Assembly: GCA_965369445.1 (NCBI GenBank)
Contig: CBDUQU010000001.1
Coordinates: forward strand, 1,614 to 65,613
Source: an uncultured bacterium
Lineage (GTDB): Bacteria; Zixibacteria; MSB-5A5; SM1-73
Direction of reading: 5' to 3'
Length of the DNA stretch: 64,000 nucleotides
Shown: one piece after another, positions 11,577-37,007 of the stretch
Numbering within the stretch: position 1 is the first letter of the stretch
How the letters are laid out: every line of letters starts with the position of its first letter
Made by a program: the position numbers and the translations under genes
Notes under the pieces: model-generated
Told to the model about the DNA's origin: nothing
What the model saw: only the letters and a program-made list of their open reading frames with translations
The model's database searches: none

Positions 11577-11689
11577 CACATGCTCCTTTCGGATTCGCAA
11601 AGGTTCGCCATATCTTACATCAAAGCTTCGAGAATTGCAAGAGAATATCATGCCCGGTTCGAAGGTTCGGGAAAAATGTAACTTTTCTG

Positions 11690-11718: not shown

Positions 11719-11761
11719 GAAAGAAGTTGAACACCGGTATAGAGATGATGGAGGTTCATTC

Positions 11762-17230: not shown

Positions 17231-17395
17231 CTAAGCCCCTTTCTTCATCATTGTTAGAAATGAAGACCGGAGCGTATCGCTCATAAGGGCCTTTTTCACC
17301 GGCGGCAGTTTCAGGAATCCGCCGATGAAGCCGCGCATGAACGAGTGAGTGATGCTCTGCGGAATTCCCTTAGGTGGGAAGGGGAAGGGTTTATA
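17231..17395 (-). pseudogene. 3' relic (last ~54 codons plus stop) of a paralog of the 4Fe-4S protein gene at 32232..33488
   Basis: About 85% nucleotide identity to 32235-32360. In-frame translation gives ...PQSITHSFMRGFIGGFLKLPPVKKALMSDTLRSSFLTMMKKGA*, against ...PQSITHSFMRGFIGGFLRLAPVKKALMSDVLRSSFLGMMNKGA* in the intact gene. There is no start codon; an in-frame TGA lies immediately upstream, at the edge of an 11-bp-stem hairpin. Confidence 0.6.
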
Positions 17396-17478: not shown

Positions 17479-18654
17479 TCACGATTCGACCCGCAGAACC
17501 CTGTCGGGAATCCTGACCCTCTCGGGCTTAGAACCTTCTTCCGGATGCTCAAAGATGGGCAAATACCGCACTGCCATAGCGAAGATGAAGAATCCGGTGG
17601 CTACCAGAGCCAGGGTGACGGCGATCTCCATCCATGACGGAAAGTAGTTGACCCCGGACGAAGCCACGAAACCGGTCGTGGACACGTTTAATCTGTTCAG
17701 CAAAAACCCGACGATGGTGCACACCGCCGCTATGTAAAGTCCCCTGGTGGAGAGCCTTATCTTTCGTATCGAGAGCAGGACGATGGGAACGATTATTCCT
17801 GCTAAGATCTCCAACCAGAAGAGCCCGGTCTCCATGCGGAGGAGGAAGAGTTCCGACCAAACACCTCGCATGAAGAAATCATAAATCTTCATAAGCAGGT
17901 AAATCACCAAAACCACCAGAAGGATTCTTCCAATGTCCGCCAGCACGTCCTGCTTCAGGCGGTGACCGAAAGCTCTAAAGCTCAGGTGTGATTCAAAAAT
18001 GACCATGGCGCATCCTGCCGCAATCGCGGAGACGTAGAACAGCAGAGGCAGAGACGCCGAGTACCAGAGCGTGTATAGCCTGTGAGGCACGATCAAGAAC
18101 AACGAACCCAAAGAGGACTGGTGCATGGTGGAAAGGACGACTCCCAGTATGACCAGGGGAACCGTTATCCTGCCTATCCATCTCTTGGGCCCGCTCCAGC
18201 CCAAACGTTCGAAGAGGTTCGGACTGAATTCGAAAAACAACACCCCGGTGTATAACATGACGCACATGGCTACCTCAAACAACGGGGAATGGAAGTTGCC
18301 CATAAAGAGAGGATTGTATAGCTTGTCCGGGCGTCCCACGTCAAAGAGAAGACCTACGATCACCAGAAGGTACCCCAAAAAAGCGGTTAAGATGGCGGGT
18401 TTCAGAACGGGATAGAACCGCTTAACGTGAAACACGTAAACTGCCGCCGCCAGGGTAAACCCGCCGGCGGCCAACCCCACTCCCGATATGACGTCGAAAC
18501 CAACCCACAGCCCCCAGGGAAACCTATCACTCAAATTAGTAGCTGCCCCCAGGCCGCCGGTGAAACGGACAATGGTCGCTATAAGGCCAGCCACCCAGGT
18601 CAGAAGCAGGACTACTTTCCAGAAAGTTATCTTGAACGGTAATTTGATACTCAC
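17479..18654 (-). CDS. NrfD/PsrC-family polytopic membrane subunit of a quinone-interacting redox complex
   Basis: 391 aa with 8-10 TM helices and no cofactor motifs. It sits immediately downstream of a 4Fe-4S NrfC/HybA-type partner. Confidence 0.65.
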   Translation of the reverse strand: MSIKLPFKITFWKVVLLLTWVAGLIATIVRFTGGLGAATNLSDRFPWGLWVGFDVISGVGLAAGGFTLAAAVYVFHVKRFYPVLKPAILTAFLGYLLVIVGLLFDVGRPDKLYNPLFMGNFHSPLFEVAMCVMLYTGVLFFEFSPNLFERLGWSGPKRWIGRITVPLVILGVVLSTMHQSSLGSLFLIVPHRLYTLWYSASLPLLFYVSAIAAGCAMVIFESHLSFRAFGHRLKQDVLADIGRILLVVLVIYLLMKIYDFFMRGVWSELFLLRMETGLFWLEILAGIIVPIVLLSIRKIRLSTRGLYIAAVCTIVGFLLNRLNVSTTGFVASSGVNYFPSWMEIAVTLALVATGFFIFAMAVRYLPIFEHPEEGSKPERVRIPDRVLRVES

Positions 18655-21912: not shown

Positions 21913-23048
21913 CTCCTATCACCTGCCTTTCTGTTCTTTCCGCTTCTCCTATAGCGCAAGAGATGTGCCGATTGTGACTTTTTTCACAAAGATTCGCCAA
22001 GCCTTTCAGTTAATGGCTTGAAATATAAGAGCTTATGTTTCGTGCCGAAGAACGAGGATGGGTGTATTCTGCAGATTCAGCCGAGTTGGTGCATGTCAAA
22101 GTTATGCACCGAAATCAGAGGGTTTTGTTGAGATACAAAGACTTAGGAGGAATTCGCGGTGTATAGGAAAAATATATAGTGAATACGTTTCATATACGTT
22201 TTTAGCACGTAGGTCCGAAATCCTCCGCCTCGGGCAGCGATTTCAGACATGATAAACTTCCCTCCCTCGATGGTTCGACAAGCTCACCACAAGTGGGAGG
22301 GAATAAAAGGGAGGGTGAAATGAGGTATTCTCTCGTTGGTAACGGACACCTTGTCCGTTACCCTTCAACTTCGTTCCCTTCGGGTCTGCCCAGACGGATC
22401 CGTAGGACAGCCTGCTTGACAGTTTCTCTTGTAGCCGCAGACTTCAGTCTGCGGGGGCGGATGGCGGGGGGCTCACAGGGTGATTGTCGGGCACCCCAAC
22501 GGCCCTTCGACAAGCTCAGGGCGGGATCGCCCTACAGGCCCATCCGGGCACCCCAACCCGCAAGTCTGGACTTGCTGGACATACTGGACTTGCTGGACTT
22601 TGTTTTTGGTTTTTTTTATGGTTCGAAGTCCGGGGTCGAGATAGAAGATCGTTATCCCGGAGGGGGGCGTTGGCCCCTGGCTGGGTTTTGGTGTTTGTGA
22701 ACCCGACGGCGGAGAGGGACCGACCCACCGGGTGACAAGTGAGCCGGTTTTCTTTGGAGTTGGTATGAAGCAGATGATTCATATGATTCTTATCCTCCCG
22801 AAAGTTACGGCTCATACAATAAACAATCGTCTCCTCAATAATACTGGAGCAATCTCTTTCACCATCAAAGTTCTTTTGAATTTGGTCTTTGTGGTAAGAG
22901 AGACACGCATTGGCGGTCTTTTTGTCCCCCTGAGAAGGGGTTCACCCTGAAGGGGGAAATCGAAGATCCGTAGAACAGGGGGTTATTGTATTTCTCCCCC
23001 TGATAAGGGGGACACAGGGGGTTCCATGTTGATTTCGTACCATTTTCC

Positions 23049-23077
23049 TTGACTTCTACAGGTCTGCGAGCTATAAT
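23049..23077 (+). promoter_or_regulatory. consensus sigma-70 promoter TTGACT-N17-TATAAT upstream of hsdM
   Basis: TTGACT at 23049-23054, a 17-nt spacer, TATAAT at 23072-23077; about 180 nt upstream of the hsdM ATG. Confidence 0.6.
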
Positions 23078-23257
23078 ATTCGTTGTCAAGAGAGCTTATA
23101 TCTGCAGGAGGCAGGGCTGGGCATACCGGCTCTGGGCTTGGACTACACGGGCCACAGTCATTCGTCACTCACGGCGCTCAAAGCCATGTTCAGACTGCTA
23201 TACGGATCAAAATAAACATAGTCAGCCACCAAGAGTGACGCAAACGTAGGGAAACAC

Positions 23258-24712
23258 ATGTTCGAGCAGACCTTCAAAAACATCGACGATGTGCTCTGGA
23301 AGGAGGCGGGGTGTTCGTCCGAGCTGGACTATACGGAACAATCCTCCTGGATGCTGTTCCTCAAATACCTCGATGACCTGGAGCAGGAACGGGCCATGCG
23401 CGCGAAATTGCGAGGCAAGTCCTACGAGTTCCTCCTGGAAAAACGCTTCCGGTGGTCCAGTTGGGCCGCGCCAAAAAACCGCGCCGGAGAGTTTGACCAC
23501 GACAAGGCGCTTACCGGCGACGACCTCATCGACTTCGTCAACCGTGAGCTCTTTCCCTACCTCCAGGGCTTCAAGCAGCGCGCCGCCAGCCCCGACACCA
23601 TCGAGTACAAGATTGGCGAGATCTTTGGCGAGATCAAGAGCAAATTCCAGAGCGGCTACAGCCTGCGGGACACGCTGGAACTGATGGACGCCCTGCGCTT
23701 CCGTTCGCAGAAGGAAAAGCACGAGCTGTCCCACCTTTACGAAGCCAAGATCAGGAACATGGGCAATGCCGGCCGCAACGGCGGCGAGTACTACACCCCC
23801 CGTCCGCTGATTCGCGCTATGGTCCGGGTGATCAAACCCAAGATCGGCGAGCGGATATATGACGGGGCTTGCGGTTCGGCGGGCTTCCTGTGCGAGTCCC
23901 ACGACTACCTGCGCAAGGGCAAACTGACCACCAGCCAACTCAAGAAACTCCAGACCAAGACCTTCTATGGAAAAGAGAAGAAGAGCCTGGCCTACGTCAT
24001 CGCCATCATGAACATGATCCTGCACGGCATCGACGCTCCCAACATCCTCCACACCAACACCCTGTCCGAGAACATCATGGACATCCAGGAGAAGGACCGC
24101 TTCAACGTCATCCTCGCCAATCCGCCCTTCGGCGGCAAAGAGCGCAAGGAAGTCCAGCAGAACTTTCCCATCAAGACCAGCGAAACCGCCTTCCTCTTCC
24201 TCCAGCACTTCATCAAATCGCTCAAGGCCGGCGGCCGCGCGGCGGTGGTCATCAAGAACACCTTCCTCTCCAACTCCGACAACGCCTCCCGCGCCCTGCG
24301 TCAGGAGCTGCTCGAAAACTGCAACCTCCATACTATTCTCGACTGCCCCGGCGGCACCTTCCTCGGGGCGGGCGTGAAGACCGTAGTGCTATTCTTCGAG
24401 AAGGGCGCGCCCACACGGAAAACATGGTACTACCAACTCAATCCCGGCCGGAGCCTGGGCAAGACCAACCCGCTCAACGACGACGACCTCAAGGAGTTCG
24501 TGAAACTGCAGGCCAAGTTCAAGGATTCTGAGCAGTCCTGGACCGTGAACATTGCCGACGTGGATCAGGAGACCTTCGACCTCTCCGTCAAGAACCCCAA
24601 CACGCCGGAGGAAGCCCCGCTTCGCGAACCACGGGAAATCGTCGAGGAGATGGCCGCGCTGGATGCCGAGAGCGCCAAGATCCTTGATGGGATTCGGGGG
24701 ATGCTGCGGTGA
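23258..24712 (+). CDS. hsdM: Type I restriction-modification system DNA methyltransferase subunit
   Basis: N6-adenine methyltransferase motif IV NPPFG (ILANPPFGGKERKE) and the SAM-binding region (IYDGACGSAGFL); operon position before hsdS/hsdR. Confidence 0.9.
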   Translation: MFEQTFKNIDDVLWKEAGCSSELDYTEQSSWMLFLKYLDDLEQERAMRAKLRGKSYEFLLEKRFRWSSWAAPKNRAGEFDHDKALTGDDLIDFVNRELFPYLQGFKQRAASPDTIEYKIGEIFGEIKSKFQSGYSLRDTLELMDALRFRSQKEKHELSHLYEAKIRNMGNAGRNGGEYYTPRPLIRAMVRVIKPKIGERIYDGACGSAGFLCESHDYLRKGKLTTSQLKKLQTKTFYGKEKKSLAYVIAIMNMILHGIDAPNILHTNTLSENIMDIQEKDRFNVILANPPFGGKERKEVQQNFPIKTSETAFLFLQHFIKSLKAGGRAAVVIKNTFLSNSDNASRALRQELLENCNLHTILDCPGGTFLGAGVKTVVLFFEKGAPTRKTWYYQLNPGRSLGKTNPLNDDDLKEFVKLQAKFKDSEQSWTVNIADVDQETFDLSVKNPNTPEEAPLREPREIVEEMAALDAESAKILDGIRGMLR

Positions 24713-26031
24713 ACTGTCAATTCTCTACAAAACCACTGCGCGACCTTATAAAGGAGAATCCCAAGTCTACGCTTAAGGTTCGAGACTCGCTTGATACGGG
24801 TCGCTTTATTTTCTTAACTAGCGGGACAAAGACTCGGTATTCGAATGATTACTTGTGTGAAGAAGAGAACCTCTTTCTTGCTACCGGAGGAACCGCTCAC
24901 GTTGGCTACTTCAATGGACCGGCCGCATATTCAACGGACTGCTATTCGATAACAACGAAAGAAGGGCTTTCAACAAAACTCCTGTATTACTTTCTTCTGA
25001 GTCAGTTAAATTACATCAATGAGTCGCTGTTCAGGGGAGCAGCGCTAAAGCACCTACAAAAGCGGGCCTTCAAAGAACTTCCCGTTCCTGTCCCGCCAGA
25101 GGTTCTTCAGGAGCGGATCGTGGCGATCCTCGACGAGGCGTTTGCTGGTATCGCTACGGCGGTCGCCAATGCCGAGAAGAACCTCCCCAACGCGCGGGAG
25201 TTGTGGGCAGGTGCATTGGCCTCGGCGTGCTCCGGGGCACTTACCAAGGGCTGGAGGCCCAAGAATAGCGAGATTGAACCGGCTAAAGACCTGTTGTTAC
25301 GCGCAATCGCTCGACGGCACGAGCAGCGTAGAACTTCCGGTAGGCCCAAAGAACCGCAACCCCCAATTGCTGCTACAAAGACAACTATCCCCGATACGTG
25401 GGTGTGGGCATCTCCCGAACAGCTTTCGACACATATTGTCGATTGTCCGCACAGTACTCCGAGGTGGGCCGATGAAGGGCCCATCTGTATCCGCACGACG
25501 AATTTCAGACCGGGATATCTCGACCTAGGTTCGGTGAGATACGTTTCGGAAGTCGCCTACACCGAACGGGCAAGGCGGTTAGAACCGAAACCAGGGGATG
25601 TCTTATACAGCCGTGAAGGCGGGATCCTAGGTATCGCTTGCACCTTTCCCGATGGACTGAAAGCGTGCTTGGGACAGAGGATGATGCTCTTTCGCCTTGA
25701 CAATTGCGCAGTGCATCCTCGCTATTTCGCTTGCGTACTGAACTCACCTCACATCTTGACGATAGTGAATCGGTTAACAGCGGGAGCCGCTGCACCACAC
25801 ATAAACATACGAGACATAAGGACATTTCCGATCCCGCTTCCGCCGTTCTCTGAACAGCAACAAATCGTCACAGTTCTTGACACTGTGTGGACATCGATCC
25901 AGCGCCTTGAGCGGATCCAATTGCGGAAGCTGGACTTCCTCGCCGAACTCAAGCAATCCATTCTCCAGAAAGCCTTCTCTGGCGAACTCACCGCCAAACC
26001 CGACAAAGCCCTCGCGGAGGCCGGACTATGA
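24709..26031 (+). CDS. hsdS: Type I restriction-modification specificity subunit with two target-recognition domains
   Basis: Two variable target-recognition domains separated by conserved central and C-terminal helices (the latter LKQSILQKAFSGELT). ATGA overlaps with hsdM and hsdR. Confidence 0.85.
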   Translation: MNCQFSTKPLRDLIKENPKSTLKVRDSLDTGRFIFLTSGTKTRYSNDYLCEEENLFLATGGTAHVGYFNGPAAYSTDCYSITTKEGLSTKLLYYFLLSQLNYINESLFRGAALKHLQKRAFKELPVPVPPEVLQERIVAILDEAFAGIATAVANAEKNLPNARELWAGALASACSGALTKGWRPKNSEIEPAKDLLLRAIARRHEQRRTSGRPKEPQPPIAATKTTIPDTWVWASPEQLSTHIVDCPHSTPRWADEGPICIRTTNFRPGYLDLGSVRYVSEVAYTERARRLEPKPGDVLYSREGGILGIACTFPDGLKACLGQRMMLFRLDNCAVHPRYFACVLNSPHILTIVNRLTAGAAAPHINIRDIRTFPIPLPPFSEQQQIVTVLDTVWTSIQRLERIQLRKLDFLAELKQSILQKAFSGELTAKPDKALAEAGL

Positions 26032-28421
26032 ACGAAGCCGAAACCCGCGCTGAACTCATTGATCCCGCCCTGAAGGCTGCCGGTTGGGGCGTGGTGGAAG
26101 GCAGCCGCGTATGCCGTGAAGTCATCACCCTCGGCCGCCTGCAAGGCGCAGGGAAGCGTGCTCAGCAGGACATTGCCGACTACGTGCTGGTCTACCGGAA
26201 CCAGAAGCTGGCCGTCATCGAGGCCAAGCGCCGTGATTTGCCCGACACCGAAGGCGTGGCCCAGGCCAAAAAGTACGCCGAAAAACTCCAAGCGCGTTTC
26301 GCTTACTCCACCAATGGCGACGGGATCTACCAGATCGACATGAAAACCGGAGCCGAGAGGTATATCCCGCACTACCCATCCCCCGCCCAACTCTGGGCCG
26401 ACACCTTTGCCGAGGAGAACGTGTGGCGCAACCGTTTTGCCGAGGTTCCCTTCGAGGATAAGGGCGGCGCCTGGGAAGCCCGCTACTACCAGCACAATGC
26501 CATCAACCGCACATTGGAAGCCATCGCGGCAGGTAAACCGCGCATCCTGCTCACCATGGCCACCGGCACCGGTAAGACCTTCATCGCCTTCCAACTCGCC
26601 TGGAAACTTTTCCACAGCCGCTGGACGCTCGCCCGCGACGCCAAACGTCGACCCCGTGTCCTGTTCCTTGCCGACCGCAACATCCTTGCCGACCAGGCCT
26701 ACAACGCCTTCTCCGCCTTTCCCGAAGATGCGCTGGTGCGCATTGCGCCGGACGAGATCCGCAAGAAGGGCCGCGTACCGAAGAACGCCAGTATCTTCTT
26801 CACCATCTTTCAGACCTTCATGACCGGCGCCGATGAAGAAGGCAACCCCAGCCCCAACTTCGGCGACTATCCCCCGGACTTCTTTGACTTCATCGTCATT
26901 GACGAATGTCACCGCGGCGGCGCCAACGACGAGAGCAACTGGCGCGGCATCATGGAGTACTTCTCTCCGGCCCTGCAACTCGGCCTTACCGCCACTCCCA
27001 AGCGCAAGACCAACGCCGACACCTATGCCTACTTCGGCAAACCTGTCTACATCTATTCCCTGAGAGACGGCACCAACGACGGCTACCTCACGCCTTTCAA
27101 AGTCAAACAGATCGCCACCACTATCGACGAATACGTCTACACATCTGACGACCATGTCATCGAGGGCGAGGTAGAGGTAGGCCGGCGCTATACCGAGGAC
27201 GACTTCAACCGGGTGATTGAGATACAGGCCCGCGAAAAGTACCGCGTGAAGGTCTTCATGGACGCCATCGACCAGAGCCAGAAGACCCTCGTCTTCTGTG
27301 CCACCCAGGACCACGCCCTGGCGGTACGCAACCTGGTGAACCAAATCAAGGCCAGCGCCGAACCAAACTACTGCGTGCGGGTGACCGCCAACGACGGCGC
27401 CTTAGGTGACCAGCACCTGCGCACCTTCCAGGACAACGAGAAAACCATCCCCACCATACTGACCACTTCCCAGAAACTATCCACCGGTGTGGATGCCCGG
27501 AACATCCGCAACATAGTCCTGATGCGTCCCATCAATTCCATGATTGAGTTCAAGCAGATCATCGGGCGCGGCACCCGGCTCTTCGACGGCAAGGACTACT
27601 TCACCATCTACGACTTCGTAGAGGCATACAAACACTTCAACGACCCCGAATGGGATGGCGAACCGGTAGAGCCGGAACCGTGTGAGCGCTGCGGCAACAG
27701 TCCGTGCACCTGTGAAGTAGAACCACCCGAACCTTGTCCTGTATGTGGCGAGATTCCCTGTGAATGTGAGAAAGAACCGCCTGAGCCTTGCCCTGTCTGT
27801 GGTCAACGCCCTTGTATCTGCAAGAAGCGGACCAGAGTTAAGGTCAAACTGGCAGACGGCAAAGAACGCAGCATCCAACACATGATGGCAACAACCTTCT
27901 GGAGTCCGGACGGCAAGCCCATGTCCGCCGCCGAGTTCATCGAACGCCTGTTTGGCGACCTGCCCGAGCTTTTCAAAGACGAAAACGAACTCCGAAAGCT
28001 GTGGAGCCGCCCCGATACCCGCAAGGCGCTCCTTCAGGGTCTTGCAGAAAGAGGCTACGGCGATGAGCAACTCGCCGAGGTTCGCTCCATGATCGATGCC
28101 GACAAGAGCGATCTCTACGACGTACTGGCTTACGTCGCCTTTGCCCGCGCCCCCATCACCCGCGAGGAGCGGGTGAACACTCACAGAAATCTTATCTTCT
28201 CCCACTATGCGGACAAGCAGCAGGAGTTCCTCGACTTCGTCCTGGGTCACTACATCCAACAAGGAATTGGCGAACTCGATCAGGACAAATTACCCCATCT
28301 TCTTGAACTCAAATACCACGCCATCAGCGACGCCGTCGCGGCCCTGGGGAACGTGACAGACATCCGCGAGGTTTTTATAGGTTTTCAAAAGCACTTGTAC
28401 GTGCAGCAGCCAGCGGCTTGA
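26028..28421 (+). CDS. hsdR: Type I restriction enzyme R subunit (EcoEI-like, with HsdR C-terminal domain)
   Basis: Canonical N-terminus MNEAETRAELIDPALKAAGW; Walker A MATGTGKT; DEAH-type DECHR; helicase motif VI QIIGRGTR; C-terminal EcoEI_R_C-like region. Confidence 0.9.
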   Translation: MNEAETRAELIDPALKAAGWGVVEGSRVCREVITLGRLQGAGKRAQQDIADYVLVYRNQKLAVIEAKRRDLPDTEGVAQAKKYAEKLQARFAYSTNGDGIYQIDMKTGAERYIPHYPSPAQLWADTFAEENVWRNRFAEVPFEDKGGAWEARYYQHNAINRTLEAIAAGKPRILLTMATGTGKTFIAFQLAWKLFHSRWTLARDAKRRPRVLFLADRNILADQAYNAFSAFPEDALVRIAPDEIRKKGRVPKNASIFFTIFQTFMTGADEEGNPSPNFGDYPPDFFDFIVIDECHRGGANDESNWRGIMEYFSPALQLGLTATPKRKTNADTYAYFGKPVYIYSLRDGTNDGYLTPFKVKQIATTIDEYVYTSDDHVIEGEVEVGRRYTEDDFNRVIEIQAREKYRVKVFMDAIDQSQKTLVFCATQDHALAVRNLVNQIKASAEPNYCVRVTANDGALGDQHLRTFQDNEKTIPTILTTSQKLSTGVDARNIRNIVLMRPINSMIEFKQIIGRGTRLFDGKDYFTIYDFVEAYKHFNDPEWDGEPVEPEPCERCGNSPCTCEVEPPEPCPVCGEIPCECEKEPPEPCPVCGQRPCICKKRTRVKVKLADGKERSIQHMMATTFWSPDGKPMSAAEFIERLFGDLPELFKDENELRKLWSRPDTRKALLQGLAERGYGDEQLAEVRSMIDADKSDLYDVLAYVAFARAPITREERVNTHRNLIFSHYADKQQEFLDFVLGHYIQQGIGELDQDKLPHLLELKYHAISDAVAALGNVTDIREVFIGFQKHLYVQQPAA

Positions 28422-28655
28422 CCGGATGCAACCCCTCTTCTAACTGCTTTATCCGTTCTATCCCTTTAATCCGTTGACAGCTTCGGATGCCCCACCGCTT
28501 GCCACGCCCCTTTAATACCTACCGCCTATCCTCTCTTTCCACAAAGAGCAAATATACCCTAACTTCAATGGTGAAGAAGATAGCTCCACAGTGTATGGGA
28601 GAACCAATGTCTTTTGCATGCACAGAACCCCGCCTTAACGGAGAAGAAGAATCTC

Positions 28656-28880
28656 ATGAACCATATATTTGATACCGAGGATGAAGAACAGAGCTCCACG
28701 CAGTTGAAGTTCCTAAAAACCTTGATCGACAAGCTCATTAAAGGACGAAAACACCCAACGGGTGCTCCGCCATCCTCTCGGACGACCAACTACTTTTATG
28801 GTAAGCTTACGAACTACACTCAGAATACAGATTTAAACGTACATAATTCTTTGCCTGATAACTGCTTGGAGGCAAAGTGA
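28656..28880 (+). CDS. hypothetical small protein (74 aa) in the AT-rich spacer downstream of hsdR
   Basis: ATG at 28656 with GGAGAAGAAG upstream; no recognisable domain. The coding call rests only on the RBS and an open frame. Confidence 0.2.
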   Translation: MNHIFDTEDEEQSSTQLKFLKTLIDKLIKGRKHPTGAPPSSRTTNYFYGKLTNYTQNTDLNVHNSLPDNCLEAK

Positions 28881-29069
28881 GAAAAAAATTAAAAATACCA
28901 CCAGATGCACCAGAAGCGCCAGTTCCACCAGTCAAACATCTCCGCTTGCGGTGAATCCTTCAGATGAATCCGTTGCAGAAAGGATTTAGGTGTTCCTCCC
29001 TAGTATTTCACTTGACCCCCTGAATCCTCGACCCCTAGAACCCTTCCTGTCACGCTAACAGATCTCGGC

Positions 29070-30467
29070 CTATTTCTCTATCCTGATATTGTATTTTCGC
29101 ATCAAAGCCTGGAAGTTGGGCCTCAGCATACCCACTTCTTTGGCTGACTTAGTGATGTTCCAGTCGTTTCTCGTCAGCGCGTCTAAGATGAACGACTTCT
29201 CGACATTGCCGACGGCAGATTCTCTCAGTCGTCTCTTAGCTTCCTTCAGCTCTTCTGAAGTCTTTGGGATGAAGGTGTCCGGATGAGCCACCTCCGATCT
29301 GACCACAAAAGGGAGATGTTCTGTAGTAATGGTGTCCCCTTCGGCCATGACGATAGCCCGCTCTATCACATTCTCCAACTGCCTTACATTCCCGGGCCAG
29401 GTGTGGTCAATTAGCATGTTCATCGCCTCGACCGAGATGCTCTTTATCTTTTTCTTCATCTCCTGCCCGTATTTCTTGAGAAAATGATAAGCTAAGAGGG
29501 GAATATCGTCTTTTCTCTCCTTCAGCAGCGGTACCCTTATGCTAACTACATTCAGACGGTAGAATAGGTCCTCCCGGAATTTCTCATCCTCGACCAGTTT
29601 TTCTAAGTCTTTATTGGTGGCTACGATAAATCTCAAGTCCACCTTTTTGGACTTGACCTCCCCCACCGGGGTGAACTCCCTTTCCTGAATCACCCTCAGT
29701 AGCTTAGACTGGAAATTCTGGCTCGTGTCCCCGATCTCGTCTAAGAAGATCGAACCGCCGTTGGCTACCTCGAACAGCCCTGGTTTGGTTACTATTGCCC
29801 CGGTGAAGGATCCTTTAACGTGGCCGAAAAGTTCGGATTCTAAGAGTTCCTGAGCTAAGACTCCGCAGTCGACCGTTACAAAGGGTTTTTGTTTTCTGGG
29901 GCTGTTGAAATGGAGGGCGCGGGCGATCAACTCCTTGCCTGTGCCGCTTTCTCCCCGGATCAGAACCGTGCTGTCTGTTGGAGCGACCTTGCGAATCAGC
30001 TTATAGACCTCCTGCATCTTGGGGCTGCTGCCAATGATGTTGTCGAAACCATATTTGGCCTCCAGCTCCTTGCGCAGGTAGATATTCTCAATTATCAGGC
30101 TTTTTTTTTCCAGAGCCTTTTCAACCACAATCAAGACTTCGTCCGGGGTAAAGGGCTTGGGAATGTAATCAAACGCCCCTAATTTCATCGCCTGGACGGC
30201 GGACTGGACGGTGGAGTAACCGGTAATCATAATCACCGCGATATCGGGGTACTTTTCCTTGACTTTTTCCAAAACCTGAATCCCGCCGATTCCCGGCATC
30301 TTCATGTCGGTGATTACGATGTCGATTGGCTCTTTTTCCAGGAGGTCAAAAGCTCCCTGACCGGAAAGGACGGTAAGAACATCGTGGCCGCCGCCTTCCA
30401 GTATCTTCCGGCAGCTCCTTAACACGATCTCCTCATCGTCCACCACCAGTATTCTGGCTTTAATCAT
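29070..30467 (-). CDS. sigma-54-dependent response regulator (NtrC/Fis family: REC, AAA+, HTH)
   Basis: REC domain (ILVVDDEE...DMKMPGIGG); Walker A GESGTGKE; the GAFTGA-type sigma-54 contact loop (KGSFTGA); C-terminal Fis HTH. Confidence 0.9.
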
Positions 30468-32057
30468 CTATATGTTCCCCTTCTTTCCAATTTCAGCGAC
30501 TTTCTCTTTTATGGGCAACTTCACTGTGAAGGTGGAGCCCTTTCCCACCCTGCTTTTCACCTCCAATTTTCCCCGGTGCCTTTCCACTATGCCGTAGCTC
30601 ACCGAAAGCCCCAGTCCGGTCCCGCTACCTTGCTCCTTGGTGGTATAAAAAGGGTCCAGTATCTTGGGCAAATTCTCTTTCGGGATTCCAACGCCGGTAT
30701 CGGTGAATCGGACAGCCACCATCTTATCTTCCCTGGCTGAAGACACGGTCAAATTTCCCCCCTCGGGCATGGCCTCGATAGCATTGAGTAGGATATTGAT
30801 GAATACCTGTTGAATCTGTCCCACATCCACTGATATCTTGGGCAAACCCGGAGCGATCTTCTTCTCAATCTTGACGTTCTGCAGGCTCGCCTGGTGAGCA
30901 ATCAGATTTGTCGATTTCTCCACCACCTCGTTTATGTCGGTCAACGTCTTTTGGGGGGCAGTTTGTCGGGCAAAGTCTAAGAGGCCCTTGACGATGTTCT
31001 TGCACCTGTTGGTTTCGTTTACGATAACCTCCAAATCCTCCCTGTCTGGGTCTCCATCTGGTTTGGCCTGGAGTAATAGTGAGGAGTAGGTCAGAATTCC
31101 GGTTAAGGGGCTATTGATCTCGTGAGCAACCCCGGCAGCCAATTTACCCAGGGAGGCAACCTTGTCCGACTTAATCAGTTGATCCTCGGTCTTTCTCAGC
31201 TCTTCCGTCCTCTCTGCCACCCTCTGCTCCAGGGTCTTCCCCCAGTCGACGAGTTTTTCATCTGCCTTTTTTAAATCTGAGGTCATCTGATTGAACGAAG
31301 AAGCCAGCTGTGCTATCTCGTCTTCGCCTTTAATCGGCGTGGAACAATTCAAGTCGCCTTCAGCGACTCTTCTGGTTCCTTTGACCAATTCTCTCACCGG
31401 ACGGGTAACATACCGGTTGATGGAGATGCTGATGGTCACCGCGATGATCAGGCAGGCAATCACGGCAAAGAAGATCATCTTATTCTGGGCGCCCTTGATA
31501 TCCCTGTCCACATCCGCCAAGGACATCCCGATGTCCAGTACCCCCAAGACCTTTTGGTCCGGAGGATGGGCATGGCAGTCCGGGGTATAGCAATCAGGTT
31601 CGTTATATATGGGAGAGATGACCCCCAATACTCTATGGCCTGCCTTGCCTTGGAAAATCCGGGAGCGGTCAGGCGTTGTGAGTCTTTCTAAGGGTTTTTC
31701 TGCGGAATGACAAGCATAGCAGGCTTCCGCTTTCTTGTCCACCATTTCTCCGATCTCGCTCTTATCAGTCGAGAACATTATCTTGCCATCTTTATTGAAA
31801 ACCCTGATCTTTTCCAGTCCCTCCTGCTCCCCGATGGTCTCGATGATCTCATGCACATCGTCACTCTGGTATCTCAGCATATCATATCGGGTGCTTCTTC
31901 TCACCGTCTCGCTTATCCTCAAAGCGCCCCGCATTACCTCACCGGTTAAGTGTTTCTTCTGAGAGGCGATGTTGAGGTAGGCATAGATTGCCATGGACGT
32001 TATCAGTATGAATCCAACCACTGAAATCAGCTTTGCTCCAATGCTCTTCCGCCACAT
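30468..32057 (-). CDS. sensor histidine kinase with a periplasmic domain carrying c-type heme-binding motifs
   Basis: Two TM helices (aa 10-30 and about 197-217) flank a roughly 165-aa periplasmic domain containing CYACH (CxxCH) and CYTPDCH (Cx4CH). HAMP, HisKA (HEINSPL) and HATPase_c (GTGLGLS) follow. 1-bp junction with the regulator gene. Confidence 0.85.
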   Translation of the reverse strand: MWRKSIGAKLISVVGFILITSMAIYAYLNIASQKKHLTGEVMRGALRISETVRRSTRYDMLRYQSDDVHEIIETIGEQEGLEKIRVFNKDGKIMFSTDKSEIGEMVDKKAEACYACHSAEKPLERLTTPDRSRIFQGKAGHRVLGVISPIYNEPDCYTPDCHAHPPDQKVLGVLDIGMSLADVDRDIKGAQNKMIFFAVIACLIIAVTISISINRYVTRPVRELVKGTRRVAEGDLNCSTPIKGEDEIAQLASSFNQMTSDLKKADEKLVDWGKTLEQRVAERTEELRKTEDQLIKSDKVASLGKLAAGVAHEINSPLTGILTYSSLLLQAKPDGDPDREDLEVIVNETNRCKNIVKGLLDFARQTAPQKTLTDINEVVEKSTNLIAHQASLQNVKIEKKIAPGLPKISVDVGQIQQVFINILLNAIEAMPEGGNLTVSSAREDKMVAVRFTDTGVGIPKENLPKILDPFYTTKEQGSGTGLGLSVSYGIVERHRGKLEVKSRVGKGSTFTVKLPIKEKVAEIGKKGNI

Positions 32058-32231
32058 AGGCGCTCCCTCAATTAGTGAATTATTTCACAAGCTTCCACCA
32101 GTTATACGGAAATTTGAAACCCAAAAGCTAACTCCAAAAGGCAACTGCTTTGTTAGGGGGTTCGCGCCACGGATGAACCGGGACGTGAAGACACCATTCG
32201 CATTTCATAATGCCTAACCCTGCTCTTGTTT

Positions 32232-33488
32232 CTAAGCCCCCTTGTTCATCATCCCGAGGAATGAGGAGCGAAGCACGTCACTCATAAGGGCCTTCTTCAC
32301 CGGCGCCAACCTCAGAAATCCGCCGATGAAACCACGCATGAACGAGTGGGTAATGCTCTGGGGGTTGTCAAACATTAGGTTTTGCAGCGTGCCTCTCTCC
32401 AGGCATTGGAGAATCACCCGTTCAAAGGTGTCCTCCGGATGGAACACTCTTTGCTTGCGCTTCACCAGTTTCAGCGCGCCGGTCGGACATTTCAGGGCAC
32501 ACACGCCGCAACCAATACACAGAGATGTGTCTATCCCTGGATTTCCTTCGGGAAGCATCCGGATGGCATCGATGGGGCAGGATTCCGCACACATCCCACA
32601 ATCTGTACATTTCTCCTCGTCACGTTCAGGGATGAAAGAGGAAGTGACGACCATACTTGTATAGCCGAACTTGCTTATACCTAACAGGACGTTGCAGCAA
32701 CACTCACAGCAGTGACAGATAAAAGAGATTCCTTGTTTCACATTATCAGCGCAGAACACCAGCCCCATCTCTTTAGAGCGGGCCAGGTTTTCCAGCATCT
32801 CCGCTTTGGAAACCTCTTTCCCCAGGTTGTGCCGGATCAGGTAATCAGCCGCGGCATCGAAAGAGGAGCAGGTCTCCAGCGGCACGTCGCACTTCTTCTC
32901 CCCCACGTGCATTTTCTCGTGACGACAGGAACAGATGCCGATGGAGAATTTCTTGGCCCCTTCGATGATCGCCGTCGCCTTTTCGTAATCTAAGACTTCA
33001 ACATATCCTGAAGTATCTATCGCATCCTCGTGTGGCAGCGTCCGCAAGGGAGAGATTTTTTCACCATGTTTGAAGTTTGCCGCATAAAACGTCGACTCAT
33101 CTTGTAGATAAGTGTGAAAAAGTCTGGCCCATTCTTTGGTGTTCAGGTTTTCACCTGTTCTCATCATGGTGAATTCAAATATTCCAACGACCAGCGGGGA
33201 AGGCATGTAGTGATATTCACCATGCATCCAGAGGTCCATCACCAGGCCCTTGGCACACAGGCCGTCCAGTAGCTTCTGCAGCTTGGAGCGGTCGTACTTG
33301 GTGATTTTCTCAATTCGATTTAGATTGGCCAGGCCGTAAGGCATCTTCACGATAACATCGGCTTCGTCTGTGGAATAGAGTTCCTTCAGAATGGAATGAA
33401 ACGTTTCATTCCACGGCGTCCTCATCGTCAAGTTATCGATCTTCTTACCGAGCTTTCGGTAGATGTCCTTCCCAACCATGTGTCCCAT
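32232..33488 (-). CDS. 4Fe-4S cluster-binding protein with a large uncharacterised N-terminal domain
   Basis: Cys-rich CSCRHEKMH, ICHCCECCCN and two ferredoxin CxxCxxCxxxCP motifs (CTDCGMCAESCP; CIGCGVCALKCP). First gene of the operon with the kinase and regulator. Confidence 0.65.
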   Translation of the reverse strand: MGHMVGKDIYRKLGKKIDNLTMRTPWNETFHSILKELYSTDEADVIVKMPYGLANLNRIEKITKYDRSKLQKLLDGLCAKGLVMDLWMHGEYHYMPSPLVVGIFEFTMMRTGENLNTKEWARLFHTYLQDESTFYAANFKHGEKISPLRTLPHEDAIDTSGYVEVLDYEKATAIIEGAKKFSIGICSCRHEKMHVGEKKCDVPLETCSSFDAAADYLIRHNLGKEVSKAEMLENLARSKEMGLVFCADNVKQGISFICHCCECCCNVLLGISKFGYTSMVVTSSFIPERDEEKCTDCGMCAESCPIDAIRMLPEGNPGIDTSLCIGCGVCALKCPTGALKLVKRKQRVFHPEDTFERVILQCLERGTLQNLMFDNPQSITHSFMRGFIGGFLRLAPVKKALMSDVLRSSFLGMMNKGA

Positions 33489-33673
33489 AATCAGGCCTTT
33501 CTTTTTTCGTTGGCCGCACCCCTACATCTTAAAAACATATTAAATACAATCATAGCAAAACACAAGGAGTTTAATTTAAGGTTTCAATTGGGTGACACAT
33601 GATTGGCCAAACTTTCTATCTCACATACAGTAAGCCCTTTGGCATACTTGCCAAAGGGCTTACTCGTTCAAAT

Positions 33674-33751
<78 letters not shown>

Positions 33752-33851
33752 ACGCTCTTGCCGCTCACGGTCCGCAGTCCACTGTCCGCGGCTCCATCTG
33801 TCGTCTTTCTGCCGTGAACTATCAACCGTGTACCGTGTACCAGCAAACGCT

Positions 33852-33925
33852 CGCGCCTAGAGGGACTCGAACCCCCAACCCTCTGATCCGAAGTCAGATG
33901 CTCTATCCAATTGAGCTATAGGCGC
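33852..33925 (-). tRNA. tRNA-Arg (anticodon TCG)
   Basis: The reverse complement GCGCCTATAGCTCAATTGGATAGAGCATCTGACTTCGGATCAGAGGGTTGGGGGTTCGAGTCCCTCTAGGCGCG has a 7-bp acceptor stem, a D-arm, anticodon loop CTTCGGA and a T-arm GGGGG/TTCGAGT/CCCTC. Confidence 0.7.
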
Positions 33926-34451
33926 ATAAGCTCCAATTTCGCAAAAGAATATACGAGCTTCGATCTATCGAGTCAACAGAAAACTTCCCTCCTAATACCA
34001 GTCACCCAAAAGATGTCAGCGTTTAATCTCAGGGTAACGATTCCCTATACGAGAGGGCTGACCCAGTGTTTGCCTGCTGTCGAGCTGGGGAGGGCTCGGA
34101 GTGTCTTAGTGGGGCACTGTCCCTAGCGGCACTCGCGGGGATCGCTTCCCGCACCCGCCCGGCCCGCTGAAAATCAACTCTTTCGCTCTTTTTTGGGAGA
34201 AACATACCGAATAACTGGCGTCCGGCGCGTACTGCGCCGATAACGAAATAGACGCTGCAGGGAGTGTCAACTAGAACCATTGCAGGCTCACGATGGTATA
34301 AGCAATATTGACGCCGCGTGTTGAGCGGTGATCACACTGACTCTTCTGTTGGCGGTGAGGTTATCCTGTCACCGTCCTGATCACGCGAAGAGAACTAAAA
34401 CCTTCACCTCTCAACGGACCTCCAGAGGATCTGTTCACCAGAAGGATCGGC

Positions 34452-34688
34452 ATGAACACGATTAAGAAGATACTTTTGATTATGGTGGTCAACACTCTGG
34501 TGATGCTCATATCCTGGGCAGGCTTGAGCGTGATCCTGCTGGGCGTTAGATTCCTTTCAGGGCCCCAGGCCGCCCTGGTGAAGATACTCTCTCTTCACTC
34601 GTTCGTCGTGGTGATGCTGTTCTATGCGTTTTATCTGATATTTGACATTTGTGAGTTCATTTCCACTGAAACTCAAGGCGAAAAGTGA
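34452..34688 (+). CDS. small two-TM membrane protein, hypothetical
   Basis: 78 aa with two hydrophobic helices; AAGGAT upstream; GTGA overlap with the next small gene. Confidence 0.35.
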   Translation: MNTIKKILLIMVVNTLVMLISWAGLSVILLGVRFLSGPQAALVKILSLHSFVVVMLFYAFYLIFDICEFISTETQGEK

Positions 34689-35008
34689 GAGACCAGATAT
34701 TAGAAAAGCTCGTCCAGGGACGTGCGGGCTTGGGCCAAATCACCCGCTTGATCTTCATTCGGGCAATCAGAGTCTTGGCCTTCAGCCTGATCTCTACCTT
34801 GATCGTCTGGCTTTTCTGGCTCGAGAACTACGCCTGGGGGGCTTTCCTTTTGGGAGCGGCTTTAGGGTTGTTGGCCTTTTTGGCTCTGAATTCCCTGAGG
34901 AAGCGGTTAAACCTTCGAAACCCGGATCAAAGTTCGGGTGTTTCAGATAGAGAAGGAGATCTGACCGACCCGGAGCACGTCAAACCTGAGGCTCCAGTCG
35001 AGAAATAA
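34685..35008 (+). CDS. small membrane protein, hypothetical
   Basis: 107 aa with a GTG start overlapping the previous stop; two TM helices, then an acidic tail. Confidence 0.35.
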   Translation: MRDQILEKLVQGRAGLGQITRLIFIRAIRVLAFSLISTLIVWLFWLENYAWGAFLLGAALGLLAFLALNSLRKRLNLRNPDQSSGVSDREGDLTDPEHVKPEAPVEK

Positions 35009-35609
35009 AGCTTGTCCCATCTTCACCATCACACGTTTCACCCTTCTCTCCTTAGACTAACAACAGCCAACTAAACGGCCTGCTTTTTTGGACCCGAATA
35101 AATAAGTGTCGTTTTGGGTTGTGACAAGATGCGGGTCAACAGGGCAACGCTGGTTCATTTCTTAATATTTCAGGCAGCCGAGGCTGCCCTGTCGCCAACT
35201 CGCCCCTCCTGAGGTTCAACAACTTTGCCACGCATCCCGCATCATGCCTTTTTTCGCCTCCAAGTTTGCCTTTGGATTGGCTTTTGAGGTAGAGTTTCCT
35301 GCAACCCCTGTGCCAATTTCTCGCCGGTTCCCGCGGAACGACATTAACCCATCAAGGTTTAACCGATTAAGGTTGAGCGGCGCTTTGGATAGTCATGGTG
35401 TGGTTTTACAAAAGACTTTCTTTGTGGGAATCATTCAACACTCTGCGGAACGCCCCCCACAAAAGGGCACTTTTCTTGCTTTGGCCTGATGGCTCAAATG
35501 GCAGACAATGAAAGCATAAATCCTTGCAGAGCGAATATGAGCCTCAGATATGTGGGAATGTCGATTCGGTTCTTGTCATTACACAGATTGAAGCCAGCCG
35601 GCTTGAACT

Positions 35610-37007
35610 CTACATCTTTCTCTTCCATTTGGTCCCCTCCGGGGTGTCCTCCAGGATGATCCCCTTCTCCTCCAAGTCCTTTCTTATCTGGTCGGCCAGC
35701 GCGAATTTCTTTTCCTTCCTGGCATCTACTCTCTTTTCGATCAGCGCCTTCACCTCTTGGTCTAAGATCAACTCCTCTCTCTTCAGCAGTCCGAGGACAG
35801 AGTCAAACTCGTTCACCACGGTTAGAACCTTGTCGGCATCAGAACTGGAGATCACTTTTTCATCCATCAATCGATTGACCTCTTTGATCAGGATAAACGT
35901 CACCCCCAGAGCTTCGGAGGTGTTCAGGTCGTCGTCCAACGCCTCCCCGAAAGCTTCCTTCGCCCTCTGCAGCACCTCGTCTATCCCTGGATTATCCTTA
36001 TCACCTTTGATTAGCTTCAGGTTATCCACAAAATCGTACAGTCTCTGCAGGGCATTCTTAGCTGCTCCCAGTCCGTCGAAAGTGAAATTGAGTTGCTGCC
36101 GGTGGTGAGTTGCCATCAGCAGGTACCTTATGACGATTGGGTTGTATCCTTTCTTCAAAAGATCCCGCAAGGTGTAATAATTGCCCAGCGATTTGGCCAT
36201 CCTTCTCCCCTCCACCATCAGATGTTCGTTGTGCAGCCAGAAGTTAACGAACTTCTCTCCGGTGGCCGCCTCGGACTGGGCGATCTCGTTTTCGTGGTGG
36301 GGGAAGATCAGATCCACTCCACCGGTGTGTATGTCAAAATGATTGCCCAGATATTTCATGCTCATGGCGGAGCACTCGATGTGCCATCCCGGCCGTCCCT
36401 TCCCCACTTCAGTCTCCCAGAAGACCTCGCCATCTTTCTCCTCCCATCTCTTCCACAAGGCGAAATCCGCCACCTGTTCTTTTTCGTATTGATCAGCGGC
36501 CACCCTGGCACCGGCCTTTAACCCGGACATGTCCATCCGGGAGAGCTTGCCGTATGGGGAGAAGGAGGCAATTCTGTAGTAGGAGGAGCCTTCGTTCTCG
36601 TACGCATGGCCCTTCTCATGCAGGCTCTTGACCAAAGCCACCATATCTTTGATATGAGCGGTAGCCTTGGAGTAGATGTGGGCTGGCTTGATGTTCAGGC
36701 TCTTAAGGTCCTCGAAGAATGCCTGCTGATATCTCTCGGTGTATTCCGCGAGAGGTATCCTCTCCTTACGTGACCCACGGATGGTGTTGTCGTCGACGTC
36801 GGTTATGTTGGTCACGTAGGTGACCTTATAACCTTTGTATTCCAGATAGCGCCGCAGAATGTCACCGAAGACATAAGCCCTGAAGTTTCCTATGTGGGCA
36901 AAGTCGTATACCGTGGGTCCGCAGGTGTACATCCGGACCTCCTCCGGATGAATGGTATAGAACTCCTCCTTCTGTCTGGTCAGAGTATTGTAAAATCGCA
37001 GCGCCAT
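35610..37007 (-). CDS. cysS: cysteine--tRNA ligase
   Basis: Class I HIGH motif (FAHIGNFRAY) and KMSKS-like motif (RRMAKSLGN); 465 aa, the typical size. Confidence 0.92.
   Translation of the reverse strand: MALRFYNTLTRQKEEFYTIHPEEVRMYTCGPTVYDFAHIGNFRAYVFGDILRRYLEYKGYKVTYVTNITDVDDNTIRGSRKERIPLAEYTERYQQAFFEDLKSLNIKPAHIYSKATAHIKDMVALVKSLHEKGHAYENEGSSYYRIASFSPYGKLSRMDMSGLKAGARVAADQYEKEQVADFALWKRWEEKDGEVFWETEVGKGRPGWHIECSAMSMKYLGNHFDIHTGGVDLIFPHHENEIAQSEAATGEKFVNFWLHNEHLMVEGRRMAKSLGNYYTLRDLLKKGYNPIVIRYLLMATHHRQQLNFTFDGLGAAKNALQRLYDFVDNLKLIKGDKDNPGIDEVLQRAKEAFGEALDDDLNTSEALGVTFILIKEVNRLMDEKVISSSDADKVLTVVNEFDSVLGLLKREELILDQEVKALIEKRVDARKEKKFALADQIRKDLEEKGIILEDTPEGTKWKRKM

Follow-up and report, generated by a model that had tools for sequence, protein, structure and literature searches.

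Organization of the kinase locus

The 64,000-nucleotide stretch of DNA analysed here (the window) comes from an uncultured bacterium of the Zixibacteria (contig CBDUQU010000001.1 of assembly GCA_965369445.1), and it encodes a sensor histidine kinase of 529 residues whose periplasmic sensor region carries two heme c-binding motifs. The positions of this gene and of the other features discussed below are collected in Table 1. The kinase consists of a first transmembrane helix (TM1), a single Cache (sCache) sensor domain, a second transmembrane helix (TM2), and the HAMP (residues 213-262), HisKA (303-367) and HATPase_c (412-517) domains, and the motif position identifies His312 as the H-box histidine. 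Its gene abuts that of a 465-residue regulator composed of a REC domain (Asp54), a sigma-54 AAA+ domain (Walker A at 172, GSFTGA at 219) and an HTH_8 domain, so that a kinase and a response regulator of the NtrB/NtrC type are encoded together. A full-length homolog of this regulator lies directly downstream of the kinase in 13 of 13 close loci. An earlier note on this DNA had named the partner as an NtrC-type sigma-54 activator, and the Pfam and NCBIfam domains, the motif positions and the abutting genes bear this out.

Topology of the sensor region and conservation of the heme-binding motifs

Hydropathy analysis finds only two hydrophobic 19-mers in the kinase, at about residues 9-29 (TM1) and 194-216 (TM2), and lysine and arginine residues number three in the N-terminus and six after TM2. 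Because there are two transmembrane helices, because the charges are distributed in this way and because HAMP follows TM2, the 164-residue loop between the helices (residues 30-193) is placed outside the cytoplasm; as in heme-c single-Cache sensors, it has a transmembrane helix on either side. The periplasmic location put forward in the earlier note is thus upheld by the two helices followed by HAMP and by the Cache fold described below, and a cytoplasmic topology is not predicted.

The loop contains the motifs CYACH (C113, C116 and H117) and CYTPDCH (a Cx4CH motif; C156, C161 and H162), both of which the earlier note had reported and both of which were read directly from the DNA, inside positions 31570-31725. 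These motifs hold all four cysteines of the loop, and a single CxxCH in a loop of such size is expected by chance at a frequency of about 5e-4. When the database was searched with the N-terminal 216 residues of the kinase, 221 significant relatives were obtained, of which the best 120 were examined for the motifs; all 111 homologs spanning the region, among these 120 matches, contain both CxxCH and Cx4CH. An alignment of 64 sequences (37-88% identity) shows no variation at, among other columns, M60, R85, G91, E111, C113, C116, H117, R133, C156, C161 and H162, and at least 90% of the sequences keep His164. When 1.84 billion cluster representatives (clusters at 50% identity) were searched exhaustively with a profile, the sensor family grew to 2,269 members at E<=1e-3, of which 414 have E<=1e-30. 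Both motifs are present in 139 of 145 further top representatives of the 50%-identity clusters. The spacer of the second motif in these 139 representatives is x4 in 131, x3 in four, x2 in three and x5 in one; 126 of the 139 have a histidine two residues past the histidine of the second motif, and CYACH typically lies 37-39 residues ahead of it. The domain therefore belongs to a subfamily in which a second heme-binding motif is found within the same sensor domain. At the level of sequence, this conservation, which holds for orthologs and also for distant relatives from many phyla, settles that the motifs exceed chance, and the concern that they might not be conserved falls away, since both are essentially invariant.

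Conservation of the cysteines could also be expected if they formed a thiol/disulfide redox switch, or a zinc or iron site, in an ordinary ligand-binding Cache domain, and it is true that periplasmic cysteine pairs can make regulatory disulfides and that Cache domains usually bind small molecules. Such a heme-free sensor is nevertheless highly improbable: the obligatory histidine is kept in both motifs, the loop has no cysteine apart from those in the motifs, and a heme c has been proven crystallographically at the aligned site of the family, with the distal methionine conserved (see below).

Fold of the sensor domain and homology with heme-c sensors of Geobacter

An AlphaFold2 model of the sensor, built with the family alignment, is confident overall (mean predicted local distance difference test score, pLDDT, 86.6). 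In this model, residues 6-61 form one uninterrupted helix that extends from TM1 into the periplasm and is followed by a five-stranded sheet, and the fold predicted for the loop is that of a single Cache (PAS-like) domain. Confidence is low solely around residues 111-130, the CYACH region (pLDDT 57-73), which is expected because a cofactor loop was modelled without its cofactor.

The isolated sensor domain matches the Pfam family PF21563 (Mcp40H-20_sensor) with 27.6 bits at a cutoff of 27 (E 3.8e-6), over profile positions 11-111 of 112, and 22 of 24 relatives of the sensor match this family as well. Furthermore, a sensor-only profile reaches PDB entry 3b42, the sensor domain of the Geobacter sulfurreducens chemoreceptor GSU0935, with an E-value of 1.3e-5; a single-sequence search of the PDB with the sensor gave nothing useful, and 3b42 was reached by profiles only. 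In the profile alignment, the family pattern NEPDC-xxxx-CH falls on NEQRCQ--SCH of 3b42, which corresponds to Cys140, Cys143 and His144 of GSU0935, and the invariant Met60 of the family pairs with residue 26 of the 3b42 chain, equivalent to Met60 of GSU0935 (the offset of +34 is fixed by the cysteines). In the crystal structure of GSU0935, Cys140 and Cys143 attach the heme, His144 is the proximal ligand and Met60 is the distal ligand (PMC8396549). Since Cx4CH lies on this proven heme site, it is the ancestral heme site with a loop longer by two residues. The domain thus has a C...CH motif at the heme position of the family, though as C-x4-C-H in place of C-x2-C-H, and a distal methionine on its N-terminal helix. 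CYACH is the additional motif, and it lies in a separate insert of about 35 residues between beta2 and beta3. Taken together, the Pfam match at threshold level, the profile match to 3b42, the position of Cx4CH on the proven site and the conserved distal methionine support the Geobacter-style heme-c sensor domain that had been suggested from the motifs.

It may be asked whether both sites are occupied. A sensor with a single heme at the ancestral Cx4CH site, in which CYACH serves as a disulfide or a structural metal site, would fit the facts that the proven homologous heme lies at the Cx4CH site only and that the CYACH region is modelled at low confidence. However, low pLDDT is what a heme loop modelled heme-free should give; His117 is invariant alongside both cysteines, a pattern specific to heme c and not to disulfides; the AEACYACHA flank resembles cytochrome heme sites, a weak match to NrfA included; and published surveys count two heme-binding motifs. 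The single-heme arrangement is consequently regarded as quite unlikely. It is very likely that the kinase carries at least one heme, and likely that it carries two.

The similarity to NrfA is confined to sensor residues 85-121 (about 31695-31805 of the window), which show weak profile similarity (E 0.0075-0.02) to a heme-binding stretch of NrfA from Wolinella (PDB 1FS7/3BNG, residues 280-312). Such a match would fit the recruitment of a cytochrome fragment into a Cache scaffold, and the idea that heme motifs of Cache domains were recruited from cytochrome fragments has been put forward (PMC12889525). The identity of the domain as a multiheme cytochrome c of the c3 or NrfA type was considered and rejected, as the fold is that of Cache and only the short segment flanking CYACH is weakly NrfA-like.

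Candidate target operon of the activator and its putative promoter

Farther along the minus strand lies a putative operon that starts with a protein of a REC and a GcvH-like domain (GcvH having the lipoyl-carrier fold), continues with two further REC paralogs, and ends with an HmcB/HybA/NrfC-like 4x[4Fe-4S] protein and an HmcC/HybB/NrfD-like integral membrane, quinone-interacting subunit. The receivers of the three REC paralogs share 43-50% identity with that of the activator (45% for the 222-residue protein), and all have the alpha1 motif V-x-x-S-C-(R/K)-K-I-L in common with it. The alpha1 region usually sets kinase specificity. Because these receivers are activator-like and share this segment, the paralogs are inferred to be further substrates of the same kinase.

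Comparison with related loci connects this operon to the regulator. In L002, a complete Zixibacteria chromosome, and in L005, the order on one strand is regulator, REC-GcvH-like gene, one or two REC genes, NrfC-like gene and NrfD-like gene. The order is equal in L010, but the REC and GcvH-like genes are separate there, and the gene after the regulator matches the REC part only. In the window, regulator and operon are separated by about 6.9 kb of DNA that encodes a type I restriction-modification system. When the flanks are aligned, window position 29070 corresponds to L002 position 8900 and window position 22201 to L002 position 8906, that is, they lie six bases apart in L002; therefore, the genome of the window acquired the island between the regulator gene and the operon. 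The island, with a G+C content of 55% against 50-53% in its flanks, is absent from L002, L005 and L010, and it sits precisely between the stop codon of the regulator and the putative enhancer and promoter of the downstream operon.

These putative control sites comprise a -24/-12 promoter, cGGCAC-N5-TTGCg, and a perfect upstream palindrome, GTGCAT-N9-ATGCAC, as expected for an operon targeted by an NtrC-type regulator. L002, L005 and L010 have GGCA(C/T)-N5-TTGC at the equivalent position, with a conserved TGTGAAAAA-GTTCACA palindrome preceding it. The GTGCAT-N9-ATGCAC palindrome is conserved in L002 and L006 and partly in L005; in the window it is the sole match to this pattern and a perfect one, while a single match at two or fewer mismatches is no rarer than chance. 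Based on these results, it is fairly likely that the operon running from the REC-GcvH-like gene to the NrfD-like gene is the target of the kinase/activator pair.

The earlier note had placed a 4Fe-4S gene at the head of the kinase operon. In fact, the gene upstream of the kinase encodes a 418-residue cysteine-rich protein in which both Pfam (Fer4 at 286-345) and the PDB matches recognise the 2x[4Fe-4S] ferredoxin domain only. It was tried as a conserved operon member and rejected: it occurs with the pair in L001 and L005 only, two of 13 close loci, and neither it nor the kinase has an upstream sigma-54 promoter at two or fewer mismatches. A scan for sigma-70 promoters and terminators around the kinase locus returned matches at chance level only. 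This gene is a lineage-specific neighbour and not a conserved partner. On the other hand, the relic of a second copy that had been noticed beside the NrfCD-type genes is real. It comprises the last 43 codons and the stop codon, matches positions 32232-32363 with 88% identity at the amino acid level and 81% over 132 nucleotides, and lies 117 nucleotides downstream of the NrfD-like gene; the similarity stops exactly at the stop codon.

One might still suppose that the pair controls the upstream Fe-S gene or an unlinked regulon and that the NrfCD-type operon answers to another activator. In the window, the Fe-S gene, the kinase and the regulator are colinear with a gap of 174 nucleotides between the first two, whereas the NrfCD-type operon is now 6.9 kb off, and a second sigma-54 promoter, a perfect one, is present elsewhere (35300-35315). 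This arrangement is unlikely, however, given the rarity of the Fe-S gene beside the pair, the lack of a -24/-12 match upstream of that gene or the kinase, and the adjacency of the regulator to the REC-GcvH and NrfCD-type genes, with conserved promoter and palindrome, in L002, L005 and L010; moreover, the palindrome does not recur near 35300. The dedicated regulon of the earlier note, together with the search for sigma-54 promoters that it advised, is therefore retained in part: a -24/-12 promoter, conserved in three related loci, precedes the NrfCD-type operon, which directly follows the regulator in relatives, while the Fe-S gene is probably not the target and has no such promoter upstream.

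Table 1. Positions of the kinase gene, its sensor features, and the associated genes and sites in the window
Feature	Position	Strand	Basis and remarks
Sensor histidine kinase, 529 residues	30468..32057	-	Open reading frame and Pfam; TM1, sCache sensor, TM2, HAMP, HisKA, HATPase_c
TM1, about residues 9-29	31971..32033	-	Hydropathy and positive-inside count; N-terminus cytoplasmic
Periplasmic single-Cache sensor domain, residues 30-193 (164 residues)	31479..31970	-	
TM2, about residues 194-216	31410..31478	-	Hydropathy; runs into HAMP, which starts at residue 213
Met60 codon	31878..31880	-	Invariant; redox-switchable distal ligand predicted for the Cx4CH heme
CYACH, residues 113-117 (C113/C116/H117)	31707..31721	-	Read directly from DNA; additional heme-c motif, insert between beta2 and beta3
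CYTPDCH, residues 156-162 (C156/C161/H162)	31572..31592	-	Cx4CH at the position of the proven GSU0935 heme site
His164 codon (CHAHP)	31566..31568	-	Speculative candidate distal ligand of the CYACH heme
NtrC-type sigma-54 activator, 465 residues	29070..30467	-	Pfam, NCBIfam; gene abuts kinase gene
Cys-rich protein with 2x[4Fe-4S] ferredoxin domain, 418 residues	32232..33488	-	Pfam Fer4 at 286-345 only; upstream of kinase
Inserted island, about 6.9 kb, type I restriction-modification system	22202..29069	.	Pfam HsdM/S/R; hsdM 23258-24712, hsdS 24709-26031, hsdR 26028-28421
Perfect palindrome GTGCAT-N9-ATGCAC, candidate enhancer (upstream activating sequence)	22089..22109	.	About 137 nucleotides upstream of promoter
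Putative sigma-54 -24/-12 promoter cGGCAC-N5-TTGCg	21955..21970	-	Pattern match; ends 42 nucleotides before ATG at 21912
REC + GcvH-like domain, hydrophobic tail, 338 residues	20896..21912	-	Pfam Response_reg, GCV_H; first gene of putative target operon
REC-only paralog, C-terminal hydrophobic segment, 222 residues	20222..20890	-	Pfam, translation
REC paralog with N-terminal transmembrane helix, 203 residues	19574..20185	-	Pfam, translation, alignment
HmcB/HybA/NrfC-like 4x[4Fe-4S] protein, C-terminal transmembrane helix	18713..19468	-	Pfam Fer4_11; NCBIfam HmcB E 2e-81
HmcC/HybB/NrfD-like integral membrane quinone-interacting subunit	17479..18654	-	Pfam NrfD; NCBIfam HmcC E 2e-99
Relic of second Fe-S gene copy, last 43 codons and stop	17231..17362	-	tblastn 88% amino acid identity; blastn 81% over 132 nucleotides

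Distribution of the family and its gene neighbourhoods

A scan of one genome per species, with a 24-sequence sensor-only alignment as the query, found relatives of the sensor in at least 588 GTDB species genomes, and the best 80 of these at least 588 loci were analysed. The phyla with relatives include Zixibacteria, Ignavibacteria, Desulfobacterota, Acidobacteriota, NC10, Gemmatimonadota, KSB1 and Bacteroidota. A Zixibacteria metagenome-assembled genome holds the nearest relative, which has 99% identity in the sensor and assigns the window to this phylum. None of the best 80 loci is from Geobacter.

Across the 80 loci, the neighbours include a sigma-54 response regulator in 33, a GcvH-like protein in 32, NrfD in 20, multiheme cytochromes in 18 and NrfC in 15. 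The GcvH-like protein is thus the commonest partner after the regulator; it is often fused to a receiver domain and to an N-terminal transmembrane helix, and the lipoyl-lysine position, judged by eye, is not conserved in these partners. In NC10, Gemmatimonadota, Acidobacteriota and Bacteroidota, the GcvH-like gene lies directly behind the kinase and ahead of NrfC-NrfD. A recurring order in Desulfobacterota is NrfC, NrfD, a tetraheme c3-like cytochrome, the kinase and the sigma-54 response regulator, and in L028 the genes for a cytochrome b561 and a 13-heme cytochrome are divergent from those for the GcvH-like protein, the kinase and the sigma-54 response regulator. Searches of the literature turned up no description of an association between such a kinase and GcvH-like proteins, and nothing relevant on a two-heme kinase with NrfCD or GcvH-like partners.

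These neighbourhoods tentatively suggest a respiratory control module, undescribed so far and shared across phyla, that would combine a kinase with two hemes, a GcvH-like protein (in many cases joined to both a receiver domain and a membrane anchor), a quinone module of the NrfCD/HmcBC or CbcBA-like type and often a sigma-54 activator. If such a module exists, which is possible but doubtful at present, the kinase would gauge the redox poise of electron carriers in the periplasm by means of two hemes, one a relay and the other a His/Met switch, and the quinone module would be under dual control, transcriptionally through the activator and directly at the membrane through phosphorylated REC-GcvH-like adaptors.

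A separate observation concerns an archaemetzincin-like gene (HExxHxxGxxH, M54-type) of about 180 residues, which occurs in 13 of the 80 loci (L028, L029, L034, L037, L040, L050, L061, L062, L064, L072, L073, L075 and L080) and has no copy in the window. In L034, L037, L061 and L080, it adjoins or separates the kinase and sigma-54 regulator genes.

Proposed signalling mechanism

What was established here comprises the motifs, the reasoning on topology, the fold prediction, the homology with its ligand alignment, the conservation, the synteny and the promoter conservation. On this footing, a mechanism may be outlined in which we infer that hemes are attached, which residues ligate them, what the signal is, in which direction the kinase is controlled and that the regulator pairs with the promoter. 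The cytochrome c maturation system would attach two hemes. Heme B would be attached through C156 and C161, with His162 as its proximal and Met60 as its distal ligand. By analogy with GSU0935, Met60 would bind the reduced heme B, and it would be lost on oxidation or displaced by NO or CO. Because Met60 ends the helix that continues from TM1, this ligand exchange could shift the TM1/TM2 pair, and the shift, passed on through HAMP, would alter the autophosphorylation of His312. Heme A would be attached through C113 and C116, with His117 as the proximal ligand and possibly His164, two residues past His162, as the sixth ligand; it may relay electrons and thereby adjust heme B to the state of the periplasmic redox pool or its carriers. 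The phosphoryl group would then be transferred to Asp54 of the activator, and the phosphorylated activator would bind GTGCAT-N9-ATGCAC and open the sigma-54 promoter, which would drive the operon of three receivers and the HmcB/HmcC-like quinone-interacting membrane module. In addition, the three REC paralogs may act as extra phospho-acceptors of the kinase. Taken as a whole, a two-heme periplasmic Cache sensor kinase acting with a sigma-54 activator on a quinone-module operon is the best explanation of the locus and, in our judgement, a rather probable one.

With regard to the signal, redox poise is slightly favoured over a gas. The same two-heme sensor could instead respond physiologically to a diatomic gas, NO or possibly CO, that displaces Met60. 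In GSU0582 and GSU0935, the distal ligand is displaced by NO in either redox state and by CO in the reduced state (PMC8396549), and in a preprint by Deshpande et al. (2026), heme-Cache domains fused to signalling modules behave as NO sensors and not as O2 or redox sensors (PMC12889525). However, the extra heme and the conserved association with quinone modules, tetraheme c3-like cytochromes and larger multiheme cytochromes favour electron-transfer status as the signal, no NO-detoxifying genes were seen among the annotated neighbours, and the precedent of BccR (see below) responds to falling redox potential. A gas signal is accordingly considered rather unlikely, although the gas and redox readings are mutually compatible.

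Against the two-heme redox sensor and its operon, several points have to be set, of which the behaviour of heme-Cache domains as NO sensors is one. In the two-motif members heme is a prediction, the AlphaFold2 model is free of cofactor, and the ligation of heme A by His164 and a contact between the two hemes are guesses. The full-length kinase scores 24.4 bits against PF21563, below the cutoff of 27, and the isolated domain is at the threshold; the two stretches aligned to 3b42 are individually weak (independent E-values of 0.11 and 1.9); and the sensor domain has no Pfam match to PF11845/DUF3365. No cytochrome c maturation genes were found in the window. The likeness to the two-motif proteins GSU0599, GSU0591, Adeh_2011 and Adeh_3383 (see below) is a presumed one, taken from published descriptions. 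As for the operon, the promoter at 21955-21970 has two mismatches to the consensus, binding of the regulator to the palindrome is a prediction, and the island puts the regulator gene 6.9 kb from its putative target. Finally, the HmcB-like protein has no twin-arginine translocation signal (it starts MTKPKALLIDITKCIGC, and the profile match begins at position 37). Homologs in other phyla, for example in L070, carry a twin-arginine signal, and the HmcB/HmcC-like module may face the cytoplasm in Zixibacteria. In addition, rpoN is not in the window, and no other c-type cytochromes, multiheme ones included, were found there.

Little is known of the means by which anaerobes respiring with minerals, electrodes or syntrophic partners monitor the redox potential beyond their cytoplasm. 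The kinase family offers a candidate sensor of periplasmic redox potential that lends itself to testing, the residues of interest being C113/C116/H117, C156/C161/H162, M60 and H164, and proteins now annotated as 'sensor kinase regulating citrate/malate metabolism' probably sense through heme.

Other features of the window

The perfect sigma-54 consensus TGGCACAGGGGTTGCA mentioned above (35300-35315, minus strand) lies between the 3' end of cysS (35610-37007, minus strand) and two small plus-strand membrane open reading frames (34452-34688 and 34685-35008). Downstream of it, neither a minus-strand open reading frame of more than 45 residues nor an Rfam match was found; an Rfam search of positions 28300-35700 returned two tRNAs only and nothing that would explain a transcript from this site. 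Possible products of this promoter are a small RNA, an antisense transcript and the message of a micro-open reading frame.

The two tRNA genes (33677-33751 and 33852-33925, minus strand), by eye tRNA-Glu and tRNA-Arg, are located upstream of the Fe-S gene, and a strong hairpin is found between them and that gene at about 33625-33660. The approximately 350 nucleotides upstream of the tRNAs (about 33930-34300) contain no open reading frame and no Rfam match. At the other end of the region, just past the Fe-S relic, a 247-residue protein (16222-16965, minus strand) gives a sub-threshold match to a TIR-like (CAP12/Pycsar effector) domain, and beyond it lies a homolog of MttB-family trimethylamine methyltransferases (10116-11759, minus strand).

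Comparison with known heme-c sensors and redox-responsive regulators

The closest characterized systems are the Geobacter sulfurreducens chemoreceptors GSU0935 and GSU0582 (PDB 3B42 and 3B47; PF21563), termed 'sCache_heme' by Deshpande et al. (2026; PMC12889525). In these receptors, the oxidised heme is high-spin and the reduced heme is low-spin with His/Met ligation, NO and CO displace Met60, and the midpoint potentials are -156 and -251 mV (PMC8396549). Like them, the kinase of the window has an extracytoplasmic single Cache/PAS-like domain between two transmembrane helices, with detectable sequence homology and fold similarity, a heme-c motif in a short helix ahead of the last strand and a distal methionine on the N-terminal helix. 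Unlike them, it has a histidine kinase as its output (GSU0935 and GSU0582 are methyl-accepting chemotaxis proteins with CxxCH), its homologous motif is Cx4CH, which falls within the published signature CX2-4CH (PMC8396549), and an insert of about 35 residues provides a second, canonical CxxCH.

Sensors with two motifs have been noted before: GSU0599 (a kinase), GSU0591, Adeh_2011 and Adeh_3383 were described as homologs of the GSU0935/GSU0582 sensors with an extra heme motif and the signature CX2-4CH (PMC3831638, PMC8396549). Since surveys note such members and no functional or structural work on any of them was found in the literature searched, the kinase joins a known subfamily that has been noted computationally and is uncharacterised. 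Two-motif members are noted by Pokkuluri et al. (2013) and by a 2021 review of chemotaxis sensing in Geobacter (PMC8396549), and reportedly by Londer et al. (2006) as well. The heme-c Cache protein Tll0287 of the DUF3365 family, reportedly a stand-alone protein with one heme and axial ligation by cysteine, differs from the present sensor, which has no Pfam match to DUF3365. Another relevant system is DcrA of Desulfovibrio vulgaris, a transducer with a periplasmic c-type heme that was proposed to sense redox potential or oxygen (PMC8396549). Like it, the kinase is a transmembrane signal transducer for which heme c is predicted on the periplasmic side, whereas DcrA is a methyl-accepting chemotaxis protein with a single heme.

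As a regulatory circuit, the locus is best compared with BccR (GSU0598), a sigma-54 response regulator encoded beside GSU0599, which turns on the operon for the quinone oxidoreductase CbcBA as the redox potential drops (bioRxiv 10.1101/2021.04.15.440034). In both cases, a sigma-54 response regulator lies beside a kinase with two heme motifs, and a -24/-12 promoter precedes an operon with a receiver protein and a membrane quinone oxidoreductase; the cbcBA operon also holds hypothetical proteins, and L028 repeats its layout of cytochrome b561 and multiheme cytochrome. The putative target differs, being an HmcB/HmcC-like (NrfCD-type) pair and not CbcB (a dihaem cytochrome b) and CbcA (a multiheme cytochrome c), so that it is not of the CbcBA type; the operon is colinear and not divergent, and it includes three receiver paralogs, one of them fused to a GcvH-like domain. 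The BccR study does not address the kinase (bioRxiv 10.1101/2021.04.15.440034). The association of kinase, GcvH-like protein and quinone module may explain redox-potential sensing of the BccR type, and if the tentative cross-phylum module holds, the diheme kinase would be the missing sensor behind the BccR-type switching of respiratory pathways with redox potential in Geobacter.

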